A DNA stretch of 64,000 nucleotides from an uncultured delta proteobacterium (GTDB taxonomy: Bacteria; Desulfobacterota; Desulfuromonadia; Desulfuromonadales; BM103), in NCBI GenBank assembly GCA_963825615.1, contig CAWGTV010000002.1:29520-93519 (forward strand), in the 5' to 3' direction. Positions 25,881 to 30,664 of this stretch are shown here, piece after piece. Position numbers and translations under genes: made by a program. The stretch's first letter is position 1, and each line of letters begins with the position of its first letter. The notes below the pieces were generated by a model. The model was not told the DNA's origin and ran no database searches. It saw only the letters and a list, made by a program, of their open reading frames with translations.

Positions 25881-28403
25881 CTATAAATCTACCTGTGTTG
25901 GCGAGTCTTTCAACTCGACGGCGGTTTTGCATATTCCCATAGTGCGCACCTCTTCAACATCCTTTTCCAAAAGGTAGGCGGCAAGAAAGAGGGGGCTTCC
26001 GGAATGCATTTTCATCCAGAGCAGATGGTCCTGCTGATGCAGATCAAGCACCCATGGGCGCAGGTCAATTTCGATGATACGGTTCTTCTTGGTCCTTTTG
26101 GCGATGACGCTTTCCTTCTTGAGAAAGTCTGTCAGGCGATCCCCAAGCTTTGTCCCCGTGCCCTGCGGTAGGGGCACCTTGTAGATCGCCGCGAGGATGC
26201 TGTTAGCTGGGGCTTCACCCTTGCGCGGCCAGCTCTCGGCTTTGAGGATTTTTACTCCTGCGGGGAATTCGCGGTCGAGACGCTCGAAAATGTCCTGTGG
26301 CGCGCAGGTCGTGGTCAGCTCCAGGTCGATGATTTCCGCTTCGCTGGCAACACCAAGCGGCAGGGCATCGCCAAAACTGATGCGCGGGGCCGGATGAAAG
26401 CCTGCCGAGTACTTGATTGGTAGGTCGGCGCGGCGGATTGCCCGATGGATCAGGGTCATATATTCGAGGTGACTGAGGCTGGCAGTGCGGCCAGTTTTGG
26501 TCAGTGTCAAGCGGACTTTCGGTAACAGTTCCGGTTGCTCAATGGCTGCCACCGGCGCCAGTGCAGGGAATACCGGTCGCAGGTTATCGGCAAGGCGCGG
26601 TCTGATGTTTTCGAAATCGCAGAGACCGCAGTAGCTGCATTGGCCGTTTCGGCAGTCCGGAGTCGCCTTGCCGAGTAGGGCGGCTTGGCGCTCGCGTAAG
26701 AGGAAGTGCTTGCTGACCCCGGCATCGATGTGATCCCAGGGAAAGGTCTCTCCTGGCAGGCGCTGGCGCAGATACCAGGCCGGGTCAAGGCCTGCTGAGA
26801 CAAAGGCCTCCTGCCATAGATCCCAACGAAAATGGTCGCGCCAGCCATCAAAGCGACAGCCAAGCTTGACCGCGGCTTCGAGAACCCGTCCCAGTCGGCG
26901 ATCGCCGCGAGCAAAGACGCCCTCGAGGAAGGAGAGTTCCGCTTCGTGCCATTTCAGACGCAGCCGTCGTTTTTTAAGGCCCTCGCGCAATTTTTTTTGA
27001 CGAGCCAGCGTCTCATTGATGCCGATCTGGGCGTCCCATTGAAAGGGCGTGTGGGCTTTGGGAACGAAGGTCGAGACCGACACGTTCACATCGGCTCCTC
27101 CCTGGGTCCCGCGCCCGGCTGCCTTGACCTGCGCGGAAAGATCAACCAAGGCGTCCAGGTCCTCTGCTGTTTCGGTCGGCAGGCCGATCATGAAGTAGAG
27201 CTTGATAACACGCCAGCCGAGCTCAAAGGCGGCGCGGGCGCTTGTCACCAGGTCTTCTGCAAGGATTCCTTTGTTGATCACCTGGCGCAGGCGTTCGCTG
27301 CCCGCCTCGGGAGCGAGGGTAAAACCGGTTTTGCGGACTTTTTTGATCTCGTTCATCAGTTCCGGCGTGAGGGAGCCGACCCTAAGGCTTGGCAGGGAGA
27401 TGGCCACGCGCTGGTCTGCATAACAACCCATGAGATCCTGTATCAGCACTTCGATGGCGCTGTAGTCGCCGGTCGAGAGCGAGAGCAGGGAGACCTCGTC
27501 GTAGCCTGAGTGGCGTAGCAGTTTGTCAACGATTTTGCGGATAGTCTCCGGCTGCCTTTCCCGCACCGGACGATAGATGTAGCCGGCTTGACAGAAACGG
27601 CAGCCACGGGTACAGCCACGTGCTACTTCGACGGCGACCCGGTCGTGGATGGTTTCCAGGAAGGGTACTATCGGCTGTTCCGGGTAGGGCGCAGAGTCGA
27701 GGTCTACCAGCACCCGGCGGCGGACTTTCGGCTGCTGCGGGTCATGTGGTGCGATATCGGCGACCCGGCCGTCAGGGTGATAGGTGACGGCGAAATGCGC
27801 CGGAACGTAGATGCCCTCGATCGTTGCCAGGCGTTGTAGCAGTTCCGCCCGGGTTTCACCTGCGGCTCGGCTGCATCGAACGGCATCGCAGAGTTCAACG
27901 ACAACCTCTTCACCGTCGCCGATGACGGCGCAATCGATAAAGTCGGCGATGGGTTCCGGGTTGAAGGCGCAGGGCCCCCCTGCCACCACCAGAGGTGCGT
28001 CGTCCCGCCGTTGGTCGGCTCGCAGTGGTAATCCAGCGAGGGTGAGCATCGTCAGGATGTTCGAATAGCAGAGTTCGTACTGCAGGGAGAATCCGACAAT
28101 GTCAAATTCACCCAAGCTGCGGCCGCTTTCCAGGGTCGTAAGCGGCAGATTGTCATTGCGCAGCTGTGCCTCGCGATCTGGCCAAGGGGCATAGGTGCGC
28201 TCTGCGGCAATCCAGGGTGTGTCGTTGAGCACCCGGTAAAGGATGGCCGAGCCGATATGGCTCATGCCGACCTCGTAAACATCGGGGAAGGCTAGTGCGA
28301 AGGTAATGTCAACCTGGCTGTGGTCTTTGCAGACACTGCCGCGCTCGCCGCCCAGGTAGCGAGCGGGTCGGTTCAGTTGGTAAAGAGATGATTCTTTCGT
28401 CAT
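25881..28403 (-). CDS. Large radical-SAM protein (B12-binding-like N-terminus, radical-SAM core, DUF2344-like C-terminus)
   Basis: 840 aa. CxxxCxxC motif in ARGCTRGCRFCQAGY. This family commonly neighbours rng. Confidence 0.8.
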   Translation of the reverse strand: MTKESSLYQLNRPARYLGGERGSVCKDHSQVDITFALAFPDVYEVGMSHIGSAILYRVLNDTPWIAAERTYAPWPDREAQLRNDNLPLTTLESGRSLGEFDIVGFSLQYELCYSNILTMLTLAGLPLRADQRRDDAPLVVAGGPCAFNPEPIADFIDCAVIGDGEEVVVELCDAVRCSRAAGETRAELLQRLATIEGIYVPAHFAVTYHPDGRVADIAPHDPQQPKVRRRVLVDLDSAPYPEQPIVPFLETIHDRVAVEVARGCTRGCRFCQAGYIYRPVRERQPETIRKIVDKLLRHSGYDEVSLLSLSTGDYSAIEVLIQDLMGCYADQRVAISLPSLRVGSLTPELMNEIKKVRKTGFTLAPEAGSERLRQVINKGILAEDLVTSARAAFELGWRVIKLYFMIGLPTETAEDLDALVDLSAQVKAAGRGTQGGADVNVSVSTFVPKAHTPFQWDAQIGINETLARQKKLREGLKKRRLRLKWHEAELSFLEGVFARGDRRLGRVLEAAVKLGCRFDGWRDHFRWDLWQEAFVSAGLDPAWYLRQRLPGETFPWDHIDAGVSKHFLLRERQAALLGKATPDCRNGQCSYCGLCDFENIRPRLADNLRPVFPALAPVAAIEQPELLPKVRLTLTKTGRTASLSHLEYMTLIHRAIRRADLPIKYSAGFHPAPRISFGDALPLGVASEAEIIDLELTTTCAPQDIFERLDREFPAGVKILKAESWPRKGEAPANSILAAIYKVPLPQGTGTKLGDRLTDFLKKESVIAKRTKKNRIIEIDLRPWVLDLHQQDHLLWMKMHSGSPLFLAAYLLEKDVEEVRTMGICKTAVELKDSPTQVDL

Positions 28404-28878
28404 TTAAGGCCCAGGTGCTGCTGACTGGTCTCACGAGACAAGTCGGCCGCTGATGGCAAATTACTGTTATGCGAAAACATTAAAAATAGCACGTTTATTT
28501 CGATCTGAACAAGAGAATCTCCGGTTTATCAAAGAAATTGAACGAGAATGTACGCGAGTGTCAAAACCTTTGGACGAACTCGCTTGCCATGTGGATTTGT
28601 CACCCACTTATGGTAATCCGGCTATGTCGCTGGTATGGCAGTTGACTGAGTAATTTATCCAGAGTCCTGCTCCATTGACCAGGTCAGCATGCTTTGTGAC
28701 GGCAAAAAACAGAGGTGTCCCCTGATGACGAACAAGGTGAGCAGGCATTTAATGTGGGCTCTTCCCGCCGTCCGGTTTCGGGGGTGTAGCAGTAATTTTT
28801 GAAAGCAACGAAAAAGAGCAGAAGGATGGCGTATTGGAAAGGCTTTGTTTCACTGCGCAGAACGACTTCAGGGACCAA

Positions 28879-28983
28879 TCAGCGATTGCGGATGCTGTGT
28901 TTTGTAGCAAGACATTGACGACAAGCGGATGAGTACGCTTTGCCGCACTCCTTACACTGCTGCAGTTTTGTGTTGTCGTTCAT
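28879..28983 (-). CDS. Candidate 34-aa zinc-ribbon mini-protein
   Basis: MNDNTKLQQCKECGKAYSSACRQCLATKHSIRNR* has CxxC-N8-CxxC. A GAGGA SD lies about 10 nt upstream. It is too short for the ORF track. Confidence 0.3.
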   Translation of the reverse strand: MNDNTKLQQCKECGKAYSSACRQCLATKHSIRNR

Positions 28984-29327
28984 GGGGAGGTTTCCTCTAT
29001 ATGTAGTGTCTGGATAATGGCCTCATACCATAGGTCGTATGTTAATCCCTATAACTGGACGGAGCAAGTTATATTTTAATCCATATCGGCTTTTTTACTT
29101 GCGTCTGGCCAGGATGGATGATGATAGCACAGTGCATGGTAAAACATGTTGCTGGATGGCTGATTTTTTGGCAGGAACATTAGTGAGGTTTGAATAAAAA
29201 ACATAGAAATAAACATTAGTAGTCAGTCCCTGCCGAGACAGGAAGCGCTCAGTTTTTAATATTTAAATAATAATAACGGTAACTTATGCTGATTTACGAA
29301 AAAATGAAAATATTTTAACTTTTCTTG

Positions 29328-29356
29328 TTGACATGAAATTATTTTAATGTTAAAAG
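29328..29356 (+). promoter_or_regulatory. Sigma70-type promoter of the small-peptide unit
   Basis: TTGACA (29328-29333), 17 nt, TAAAAG (29351-29356), preceded by a very AT-rich UP-like stretch. It lies about 40 nt upstream of the first ATG. Confidence 0.4.
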
Positions 29357-29399
29357 TTTAATCAAGAGTAAGGGACAACGCACATCACAGGAGGACGTT

Positions 29400-29546
29400 A
29401 TGAAAACTCAAAGCCGCTTCATGGATACCGTTAAAAGCAGTTACCTGGTTCTGATCATCGCCATGCTCGGCGTGTTCGCTTTTATCTCGGCCGTGTTGAT
29501 CGCCTGGCCGGCGCTCGCCTACATCGGCTCGAAACTGTTCAACTAG
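29400..29546 (+). CDS. 48-aa single-TM peptide, copy 1 (unassigned family)
   Basis: MKTQSRFMDTVKSSYLVLIIAMLGVFAFISAVLIAWPALAYIGSKLFN*. SD AGGAGGA at 29389-29395. A paralog lies immediately downstream. Confidence 0.5.
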   Translation: MKTQSRFMDTVKSSYLVLIIAMLGVFAFISAVLIAWPALAYIGSKLFN

Positions 29547-29600
29547 GAATCTCAACAATCAACCCTCCCGCCCGGCGGGAGCGCCCATAGGAGGCCCACC

Positions 29601-29747
29601 ATGAAAACCGCAGCCACTCTCGTCAATACCGTCAAAGCCAGTTACACCGTCGCCATCATGGGCGTGCTGGGTGTGTTCGCGTTCGTCTCCGCCGTGTTGA
29701 TCGCCTGGCCGGCGCTGGCCTACCTGGGCGCCAAGATGTTCAACTGA
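29601..29747 (+). CDS. 48-aa single-TM peptide, copy 2 (unassigned family)
   Basis: MKTAATLVNTVKASYTVAIMGVLGVFAFVSAVLIAWPALAYLGAKMFN*. SD AGGAGG at 29589-29594. 32/48 residues are identical to copy 1 by hand alignment. Confidence 0.5.
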   Translation: MKTAATLVNTVKASYTVAIMGVLGVFAFVSAVLIAWPALAYLGAKMFN

Positions 29748-29799
29748 GATAAAAAAGGAGCGGGGACAACTCCCCGCCTCCTGTAGTCACAATAAAAAA

Positions 29800-29830
29800 G
29801 GCCGCCCCCGGAAGGGGGCGGCCTTTGAAT
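29800..29830. terminator. Bidirectional rho-independent terminator
   Basis: GGCCGCCCCC-GGAA-GGGGGCGGCC is flanked by an A-run upstream and TTTGAATTTT downstream. It sits between the small-peptide unit (+) and the ferritin-like gene (-). Confidence 0.6.
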
Positions 29831-29852
29831 TTTCGTGATCTTCTGCTGACGG

Positions 29853-30316
29853 TCAGCGGCTCATGCCGAACATGGCCCGGTAGTCTTCTTCCACCAGTTC
29901 CAGATGGTTGTGAGTTGAGGTGGCGTTGGCAAGGTAGACCCGGGCGATGTCAGGGTTATCTATCTTGGCGGCCATCTCGCGCAGACTTTTTTCCAGAGCA
30001 TCTTCCTGTTCAATAGCCAGTTCGAGTGCTTTGCGCTCATCAAAATCCTGAACCAGGAGGCTTGCAGGTTTTTCCACCAGGACGATTCCGTGTTGGGCGG
30101 TGCGTTCATGAATTCCTGGAAGGAAGGGATATCGTCCCCGGGGTAAATTCTGTAGAAGGATTCAGCATGTTGATACTCTTCCCGGGCAAGAATTTCGAAT
30201 GTCTGTCTTGCCTTATCCTCCGCCATACGTTCGGCACCGTACTTGTAGTAATCCATGGCGTCTTTTTCAGTCTGGATGGAGTCCTTGATCGCCTTTTGCA
30301 CGTCAATGATTCCCAT
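29853..30316 (-). pseudogene. Ferritin-like/rubrerythrin-family diiron protein (no rubredoxin domain), one frame change
   Basis: The N-terminal half MGIIDVQKAIKDSIQTEKDAMDYY...LAREEYQHAE and the C-terminal half EKPASLLVQDFDERKALELAIEQEDALEK...THNHLELVEEDY are in two frames. They join at the T5/A5 run at 30069-30073. Confidence 0.6.
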
Positions 30317-30664
30317 GATTGTAAGCCTCCTCTGCTTCCTGATTTCTACTCAAAATTTAACCGGGCATATTCATAACACATTTTAAGGAACAGGTCTTGC
30401 TTTTTCTTCTCGCAGGGGCCGAGTTTCTTCTCTTGCGGATTGAGCAAAAGCCTCTGTTTATATGTTTTTTGTCATTATAAGATTGCAGTTATCTTTGCCT
30501 GTCGGCATCTGTGATCAGGTTATTTCGGCAGCAAATGATGCGAAATAACGGTATCTCGTCGCTTTGGCGAGGCATCGGGTCGGCCGGCAGTCATGAGTGT
30601 GATAGCCTGTTATGCTAAAACTTGTTAGCTTGACGGCAGTTATTTTACCGCAGAGGTCCTGGTG

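Follow-up and report, generated by a model that had tools for sequence, protein, structure and literature searches.

Small membrane proteins are often missed or left as "hypothetical", and a locus in the genome of an uncultured delta proteobacterium raises the question of what two such proteins, encoded side by side, may do for their host. The locus lies in a stretch of 64,000 nucleotides (GenBank assembly GCA_963825615.1, contig CAWGTV010000002.1, positions 29,520 to 93,519 of the forward strand), hereafter the window, whose own numbering is used throughout. A first-pass annotation, made from the letters alone, had described there a transcription unit with two tandem open reading frames (ORFs), here called ORF-A and ORF-B, for paralogous peptides with a single transmembrane (TM) helix, and had offered several roles for them.

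Coding status and family membership of ORF-A and ORF-B

Both frames are found where the first-pass annotation had placed them and with the translations it had given. Their positions, homologue counts and ratios of non-synonymous to synonymous diversity (pN/pS) are as follows:

29400–29546, plus strand: ORF-A (type A), 48 amino acids, MKTQSRFMDTVKSSYLVLIIAMLGVFAFISAVLIAWPALAYIGSKLFN; 311 homologues; pN/pS 0.11
29601–29747, plus strand: ORF-B (type B), 48 amino acids, MKTAATLVNTVKASYTVAIMGVLGVFAFVSAVLIAWPALAYLGAKMFN; 299 homologues; pN/pS 0.17

The two ORFs are in the same reading frame with starts 201 nucleotides (nt) apart, and their identical length and 32/48 identical residues, counted by hand in the annotation, are reproduced by BLASTP, which aligns them without gaps and with 42/48 positives. 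The homologues are nearly all exactly 48 residues long, at 75–100% identity. The pN/pS values were calculated from unique orthologous DNA sequences; they reach a minimum of 0.05–0.07 in the last 12 codons of A and B and are 0.13–0.14 in the helix part. In both ORFs, diversity at codon position 3 is about 3–8 times that at positions 1 and 2, and synonymous diversity (pS) is high along the whole length (0.41–0.59). With about 300 homologues each, these pN/pS values and the third-position excess, the pair is far beyond chance and the frames are conserved in relatives. The pN/pS values point to strong purifying selection at the protein level and not to a conserved RNA or DNA repeat, and they rule out a reading of the unit as a non-coding repeat. 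Judged from these patterns, A and B are very probably real translated genes.

The composition of the pair is also as the annotation had described it. GC content at third codon positions (GC3) is 0.78 and 0.84 for the two ORFs, and the stretch upstream is rich in A and T (35% GC at 29100–29399 versus 58% for the window). Taken together, A and B have a GC3 of 0.81 versus 0.72 for the background, and 19 of their 21 Phe, Tyr, Asn and Ile codons end in C, versus 64–76%.

The annotation could assign the peptides to no named family, and the searches made since agree with it. ORF-A and ORF-B have no match in Pfam or NCBIfam at E≤10 and none in PADLOC, the best match in PHROGs has an E value of 0.34, and the best PDB chain in a profile search, ATP synthase c, is insignificant (E 2.2); a match to a characterised small-protein family was thus not found. 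A Pfam and NCBIfam scan of 39 divergent members likewise gave no family, only scattered sub-threshold matches such as CcmD and YohP in single members (E 0.25–0.8). The viral contigs that were scanned hold no relatives of A or B, and a literature search on the peptide motifs, the isolate and small membrane proteins in Geobacter returned nothing relevant. When 1.84 billion representative proteins were searched with a profile, just 70 clusters emerged at E<0.001, and this wide family follows the pattern [YW]-x8-G-xx-A-xxx-A-xx-[IV]-[AS]-[WY]-P-A-[LI]-[AS]-[YFH]-[IL]-[AG]-[SA]-[KR]-h-h, at which the C-terminus is reached.

All 77 of 77 reference-genome loci belong to Desulfuromonadales, "Geobacteraceae" or deltaproteobacterial metagenome-assembled genomes (MAGs) and the isolate IMCC39146. 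The name of a second isolate, IMCC39524, appears among the cluster listings, so that there are at least two cultured carriers; the carriers are mostly known solely as MAGs. Some GenBank annotations of MAGs include ORFs of this family, always named "hypothetical protein", and the exact ORF-A sequence is present in public assemblies under that name.

The transcription unit and its RNA structures

The two genes occupy a conserved unit of about 530 bp (29299–29835) that runs from an A/T tract through a promoter, a leader, two AGGAGG Shine–Dalgarno (SD) sequences and a hairpin between A and B to two terminator hairpins. Its features, apart from the ORFs themselves, are:

29299–29327, plus strand: A/T-rich upstream tract (UP-element-like), conserved among 70 distinct upstream regions; left edge of the duplicated unit
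29328–29333, plus strand: −35 hexamer TTGACA; TTGACAT is at least 90% conserved in the 70 distinct upstream regions
29348–29356, plus strand: extended −10 element TGtTAAAAG, 17 nt past the −35 (TG at 29348–29349, TAAAAG at 29351–29356)
29358–29365, plus strand: TTAATCAA, AT-rich discriminator and probable transcription start region, kept in most loci; the start is predicted
29389–29394, plus strand: SD AGGAGG of ORF-A; AGGAG is conserved between loci
29565–29581, plus strand: intercistronic RNA hairpin CTCCCGC-CCG-GCGGGAG, just before the SD of ORF-B
29589–29594, plus strand: SD AGGAGG of ORF-B, conserved between loci
29757–29781, plus strand: first GC-rich hairpin 3′ of ORF-B, followed by a T run at many loci; probably a proximal terminator
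29791–29835, both strands: bidirectional intrinsic terminator with an A run, a 13-bp stem AAAGGCCGCCCCC/GGGGGCGGCCTTT (29797–29826) and a T-rich tail

The first-pass annotation had called this a self-contained unit reaching from promoter to terminator, and the conservation of the whole unit among loci upholds that description. The promoter it had proposed, TTGACA-17-TAAAAG, is kept almost base for base in an alignment of the 70 distinct upstream regions, which come from other loci, and is now seen to carry the TG of an extended −10 element as well. A consensus promoter scanner overlooked it only because the scanner required T at the final −10 position. Between loci, TAATGTTA, comprising the TG and the start of the −10 element, is nearly invariant, and the final −10 positions are variable. 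Downstream of TTAATCAA the leader is about 35 nt long, A-rich and unstructured (leader plus start region compared with shuffles, z −0.04). Each ORF has the strong SD attributed to it, with AGGAGG ending 5 nt before the start codon of A and 6 nt before that of B. A direct repeat, ATGAAA(A/T)TATTTTAA, lies on either side of the −35 at 29304–29318 and 29333–29347, 29 nt apart; its first copy, ATGAAAATATTTTAA, is partly kept at other loci. The repeat could be the site of a regulator or a mere similarity of A/T tracts.

Hairpins after each ORF, which had also been proposed, are present at the positions listed. The spacer between A and B has a median length of 58 nt and places a 7-bp hairpin, visible at most loci, directly before the SD of B. 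Across 22 sequences, 94% of the cells of this hairpin are paired and six of its seven base pairs show two-sided changes; its pairing value was reached by none of 500 shuffles, and slid controls gave 38–64%. Pairing and covariation beyond all shuffles indicate that the spacer hairpin is a selected RNA structure. Its 5′ arm contains an anti-SD-like CUCCC and its 3′ arm an SD-like GGGAG, with the true SD of B 8 nt downstream, and it is possible that alternative pairing of these arms tunes the translation of B or the stability of the mRNA. Two hairpins follow ORF-B at most loci, the second being the strong terminator. In the window, the 13-bp stem of this terminator is 100% complementary in an inverted-repeat search, and the terminator is common to the A-B unit and a convergent rubrerythrin-like gene. 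An Rfam scan of 28400–30400 returned sub-threshold matches only, centred on the terminator. A role as leader peptide or attenuator was ruled out, as there is no downstream gene on the same strand and two terminators follow ORF-B.

Considering (i) the near-consensus −35, (ii) the extended −10, (iii) the A/T tract, (iv) the open leader, (v) the AGGAGG sequences, (vi) the C-ending codons, and (vii) the gene dosage described below, the product of the unit is probably abundant.

Copy number, gene conversion and genomic settings

The 77 reference-genome loci are distributed over about 40 genomes with 2–4 loci per genome (for example, L034, L035, L036 and L039 in one MAG, and L018, L033 and L053 in another); no further copy of the unit is present elsewhere in the window. 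Similarity between paralogous loci, and between the window and L001 or L019, begins about 100–110 nt 5′ of the ATG of A (29299 in the window) and ends just past the hairpins; thus, the repeat unit is the transcription unit. Within a genome, gene A at different loci is often 0.99–1.00 identical at the DNA level, and the same locus compared between genomes has a median identity of 0.82. Identity that is higher within a genome than between genomes at one locus indicates that the copies are homogenised by gene conversion (concerted evolution). Several assemblies break at the unit (L079–L081, L085 and L087–L090), as a repeat would lead one to expect. A search for terminal inverted repeats and target duplications, the marks of a mobile element, found none and returned only the hairpins and AT-rich low-complexity matches.

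Among the 97 loci compared, 69 have the order A-B, two have A-B-A-B, 17 have a single gene and none has B-A. The deeper lineages (L072–L080, L082 and L091–L096) carry single genes only, which makes a single gene the probable ancestral state. Three further single genes (L057, L058 and L062), situated at the cytochrome locus described below, join a type-A N-terminus to a type-B C-terminus (...AYLGAKMFN), and their genomes also hold A-B pairs at other loci; these genes are probably A-B recombinants that arose by deletion within a stretch identical between A and B. One metagenome protein, P0308 (119 amino acids), consists of A and B fused in frame by read-through; in two others, P0277 and P0284, a portion of the peptide is attached to unrelated proteins, and these two are probably assembly chimeras caused by the repeat. 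Judged from these comparisons and the family searches, A and B constitute a new, unnamed small-protein family with an unusual multicopy, gene-converted organisation of two types.

The ORFs adjoining the 97 loci were clustered, and eight recurrent clusters were annotated (cytochromes, NrfD, an Fe-S protein, a UbiD-family decarboxylase and a rubrerythrin-like protein); radical SAM, PilZ and NUDIX genes are also found in the locus tables. In this comparison of neighbourhoods, which the first-pass annotation had suggested, one setting recurs at 32 of the 97 loci, and 42 of the 97 belong to neither of the two commonest types. In the commonest setting, the pair lies between a divergent upstream gene for a 486-residue cytochrome and a convergent downstream operon that encodes NrfD (427 amino acids), a TtrB/DsrO-like Fe-S protein and a small cytochrome c. 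The 486-residue protein has three N-terminal TM helices, NrfH homology and six haem motifs. ImcH has been described as three TM helices followed by a NapC/NirT/NrfH-like multihaem domain with seven haems (bioRxiv 10.1101/2023.05.03.539133), and this neighbour, which matches that description, is predicted to be an ImcH-like quinol-oxidising multihaem cytochrome. Farther upstream lies a gene for a UbiD-family decarboxylase, whose best match is a model of menaquinone-biosynthesis decarboxylases, below the curated cut-off. Distant single-gene members occupy the same locus in L082 (66% identity) and, in forms of 56–61 amino acids, in L091 and L096. In L009 (1–14638) and similar loci (L010–L013 and L091), two consecutive NrfD/Fe-S/multihaem cytochrome modules lie downstream of the pair; upstream of the pair, past the ImcH-like gene, L091 has a cluster of complex I (nuo) genes. 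Taken together, these genes make up a dense respiratory island linked to quinone.

The second commonest setting (23 of 97 loci) is that of the window, in which the pair lies between a radical SAM gene (840 amino acids) and the convergent rubrerythrin-like gene, and these flanking genes do not explain the pair, as the annotation had already stated. Other contexts include TatC, Usp and MobB/EamA genes, and the very distant members (Usp, MobB/EamA and metallophosphoesterase contexts, and short contigs) share no common theme.

Three features of the flanking DNA in the window were observed in passing. About 420 nt upstream of the pair, an ORF for 34 amino acids, MNDNTKLQQCKECGKAYSSACRQCLATKHSIRNR (28879–28983, minus strand), has a CxxC...CxxC zinc-ribbon-like pattern, and its core, CK[ED]CGK[AS]YSxAC[RQ]QC, is kept in about ten syntenic loci (L015, L020, L021, L023, L025, L028, L030, L049, L069 and L075); a further small gene that has escaped annotation is probable here. 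At 28561–28689 (minus strand) lies a remnant of a gene for a small monohaem cytochrome c in which SVNCH replaces CAPCH and an in-frame stop occurs; at seven other loci the radical SAM gene and the pair are separated by an intact gene for a 108-residue CAPCH protein, so that the window copy looks like a pseudogene. The rubrerythrin-like gene (29853–30316, minus strand) is split into ORFs of 118 and 74 codons by a 1-nt deletion near 30061, to be explained either by an error in sequencing or by a frameshift particular to the strain; the gene is intact (154 amino acids) in the near-identical contigs L002 and L004 and in other genomes.

Membrane topology, packing and possible function

Each peptide displays one strong helix, with Kyte–Doolittle maxima over 19 residues of 3.0 and 2.7. 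The apolar stretch from Y15 to W36 spans about 22 residues, and Y15 and W36 are 21 residues apart, as would fit the two interfaces of a membrane. The net charge of +2 at the N-terminus versus +1 at the C-terminus favours an N-in/C-out orientation. From these features, A and B are probably uncleaved bitopic membrane proteins.

Within the helix, the best-kept residues of the 39 divergent members are small (G24 in 38, A27 in 33, A31 in 34 and A35 in 34), and they map to one face; the helical moment of conservation was matched by 161 of 5000 shuffles (p ~0.03). Small conserved residues on one face are typical of helix–helix packing, and on this evidence the chances that A and B oligomerise through this face are about even. 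The most constrained segment is the tail, WPALAY-G-K-FN. W36 is present in 31 of the 39 divergent members (Y in the other eight), P37 in 38 and A38 in 36, and L39 is also among the best-kept positions. Differences between A and B cluster in the N-terminal tail and the cytoplasmic third of the helix, the remainder being common to both. In that third, A is bulky (L16, L18, I20 and A21) and B carries smaller residues (T16, A18, M20 and G21), a difference compatible with complementary packing of A against B.

We propose the following working model. One bicistronic unit would encode two paralogous 48-residue integral proteins of the inner membrane, each inserted N-in/C-out as an uncleaved signal-anchor whose helix extends from Tyr15 to Trp36. 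The helices would pack through G24, A27, A31 and A35, be it A with B, as homo-oligomers in the single-gene lineages, or with a partner protein. Past a Trp-Pro hinge, the 12-residue tail WPALAY-G-K-FN would lie at the periplasmic surface of the membrane and would probably be the working surface. In the most speculative step, the peptides would act as an accessory, docking or organising part of the inner-membrane machinery that transfers electrons from quinol to the periplasm, as the position of the commonest locus between cytochrome and NrfD genes, shared by some distant members, makes an electron-transfer accessory role possible. As a whole, this picture of an abundant, uncleaved N-in/C-out pair that oligomerises, exposes a conserved periplasmic surface and maybe serves quinol-to-periplasm electron transfer is offered tentatively, at somewhat less than an even chance; a specific respiratory role, taken by itself, is doubtful. 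A more elaborate version, in which the pair forms alpha/beta-type hetero-oligomeric arrays or rings that organise, dock or gate the ImcH-like and NrfD-type Cbc modules with which extracellular electron transfer starts in the inner membrane of marine iron-reducing Desulfuromonadales, would be a long shot.

Known systems offer partial parallels to such a pair. The pufBA and pucBA operons encode tandem single-TM paralogues of about 50 residues in fixed order, in several near-identical copies, with high expression, hairpins within or after the operon, and oligomerising products. The A-B unit shares with pufBA and the multicopy pucBA its tandem paralogous single-TM genes in fixed order, its several copies and its RNA hairpins between and after the cistrons, and it most resembles them in organisation; it differs in that A and B have no conserved His or obvious cofactor ligand, their Desulfuromonadales hosts are non-phototrophic, and no Pfam, NCBIfam or PDB similarity exists. 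A light-harvesting alpha/beta antenna proper was rejected, there being no His in either peptide and the neighbours being respiratory or housekeeping genes. CydX, AcrZ, KdpF and the cytochrome b6f subunits PetG, PetL, PetM and PetN are proteins of fewer than 50 residues with one TM helix that pack on a larger membrane protein, and the genes of CydX-type small subunits are usually single-copy and co-transcribed with that of the partner. A and B are like them in size and in having one TM helix, and their commonest locus adjoins quinol-oxidising complexes, but their unit is multicopy and transcribed independently, its neighbours being divergent or convergent, and they match no NCBIfam or Pfam model of such proteins. 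By analogy, the probable mode of action of A and B resembles that of CydX or the b6f small subunits, and among the roles offered by the first-pass annotation, the best fit is with a membrane complex that A and B would serve as small subunits or regulators. The cyanobacterial high-light-inducible proteins (Hlips) are also one-helix proteins from multicopy units that are monocistronic or short, with a helix face conserved for pairing; unlike them, A and B lack the chlorophyll-binding ExxNGR motif and a Pfam family match. A Flp/Tad (type IVb) pilin was considered and rejected: neither Flp_Fap nor any other Pfam profile matches at E≤10, the peptides have S-S-Y or A-S-Y where the G|XXXXEY processing motif would have E-Y and lack a Gly ahead of the helix, and no tad or cpa genes occur among the annotated neighbours of the 97 loci.

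Several observations weigh against parts of the proposed model. The topology was judged from simple rules of hydropathy and charge, and the AlphaFold2 model of the natural A-B fusion P0308 has two long helices with no confident packing (pLDDT 69, pTM 0.34). The A/B hybrid genes and the single-gene lineages indicate that a strict A-B heterodimer is not essential, and both peptides contain a textbook P-A-L-A|Y signal-peptidase site. The multicopy dosage suggests an amount of peptide far above the need of any one respiratory complex. Transcription of the pair is always separate from that of its neighbours, with the cytochrome gene divergent and the NrfD operon convergent, and this independence leaves the respiratory link suggestive only; furthermore, the pair occurs at unrelated loci (radical SAM/rubrerythrin, TatC, Usp and MobB/EamA), so that the link could be one of inherited synteny only.

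In an alternative, A and B would be a general abundant membrane component, affecting bilayer properties, stress tolerance or membrane shape without a specific respiratory partner, and the cytochrome neighbourhood would be inherited synteny only. The self-sufficiency of the unit, whose strong promoter and terminators are conserved, the dosage suggested by 2–4 homogenised copies per genome, the 42 of 97 loci in unrelated contexts and the distant members beside Usp or MobB/EamA all suit it, but the near-invariant periplasmic tail and the small-residue face suggest specific protein contacts and not bulk lipid effects, and the cytochrome/NrfD neighbourhood is kept even where the peptides are only about 45–65% identical. 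Taken alone, this alternative is on the unlikely side, and it and a respiratory accessory role fit the present data alike. The conserved tail and the signal-peptidase site invite yet another reading, in which the 48-mer is a precursor whose residues 1–40 form a Sec signal peptide, cut after P-A-L-A to release the octapeptide YIGSKLFN or YLGAKMFN into the periplasm or the medium. The layout of n-region, h-region and P-A-L-A|Y (P37-A38-L39-A40|Y41 in both ORFs) agrees with this, A38 is present in 36 of the 39 divergent members, A or S occupies position 40 in as many, constraint is strongest in the last 12 codons (pN/pS 0.05–0.07), and the ending aromatic-[IL]-[AG]-[SA]-[KR]-h-h is conserved across the wide family. 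In signal peptides, an h-region of 7–15 residues favours cleavage and longer helices act as uncleaved anchors; here it spans about 22 residues, the helix is strongly conserved with a specific face, unlike that of ordinary signal peptides, position −1 is V, M or Q in three of the 39 divergent members, and no processing, export or receptor gene recurs among the annotated neighbours. Release of an octapeptide is accordingly improbable.

The annotation had also offered type I toxin-like peptides and a two-peptide membrane-active product, both of which are now disfavoured. Peptides of fewer than 50 residues with one hydrophobic helix (hydropathy 3.0 and 2.7), encoded in intergenic DNA in multiple copies, often tandem, under their own promoters, do recall Ldr, Ibs, Hok, TisB and DinQ, and a membrane-damaging toxin that is normally silenced by antisense RNA, multicopy like ldr, ibs and hok, would be expected to keep its SD sequestered and to show an antisense signal. 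Instead, the leader is open and unstructured (z −0.04), with a consensus SD free at 5–6 nt from the ATG. The search of the opposite strand for a promoter or small RNA, which the annotation had recommended, found no conserved antisense promoter: there is one promoter-like match on the minus strand (29365–29338), against 1.1 expected by chance, and its −10 is variable between loci. Synonymous diversity shows no dip (pS 0.41–0.59), so that no constraint from an overlapping RNA is visible; PADLOC gives no match; and wide conservation under strong purifying selection (pN/pS 0.11–0.17), with two distinct types in fixed order, is unusual for a toxin, which makes this reading very improbable. A two-peptide or leaderless bacteriocin would account for two adjacent paralogous small peptide genes (A-B in 69 of 97 loci) and for the small-xxx-small motifs. 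Against it stand the lack of an immunity, ABC-transporter or processing gene among the eight annotated recurrent clusters of the 97 loci and in the locus gene tables, the lack of a double-glycine leader or any GG motif, a strongly hydrophobic character (an apolar core of 21 residues and only three to four Lys/Arg per peptide) that is not cationic-amphipathic, and near-invariance across many species in gene-converted multiple copies, unlike fast-evolving loci of antagonism; a bacteriocin can hardly be expected here.

Compared with the first-pass annotation, what is new are the multicopy organisation with gene conversion, the single-gene lineages, the cytochrome locus and the covarying hairpin between A and B. 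Near-invariance, fixed length, the order A then B, gene-converted copies and strong expression signals normally mark a quantitatively important component of the cell. The Desulfuromonadales are an order known for iron reduction. If the peptides are part of the electron-transfer machinery, they would supply a missing part of a pathway for which almost all work has been done in Geobacter, and if they form arrays or rings, a previously unseen structural component of the extracellular electron transfer pathway. If their role is not respiratory, they would still be an abundant lineage-specific membrane protein, carried by at least two cultured isolates (IMCC39146 and IMCC39524).

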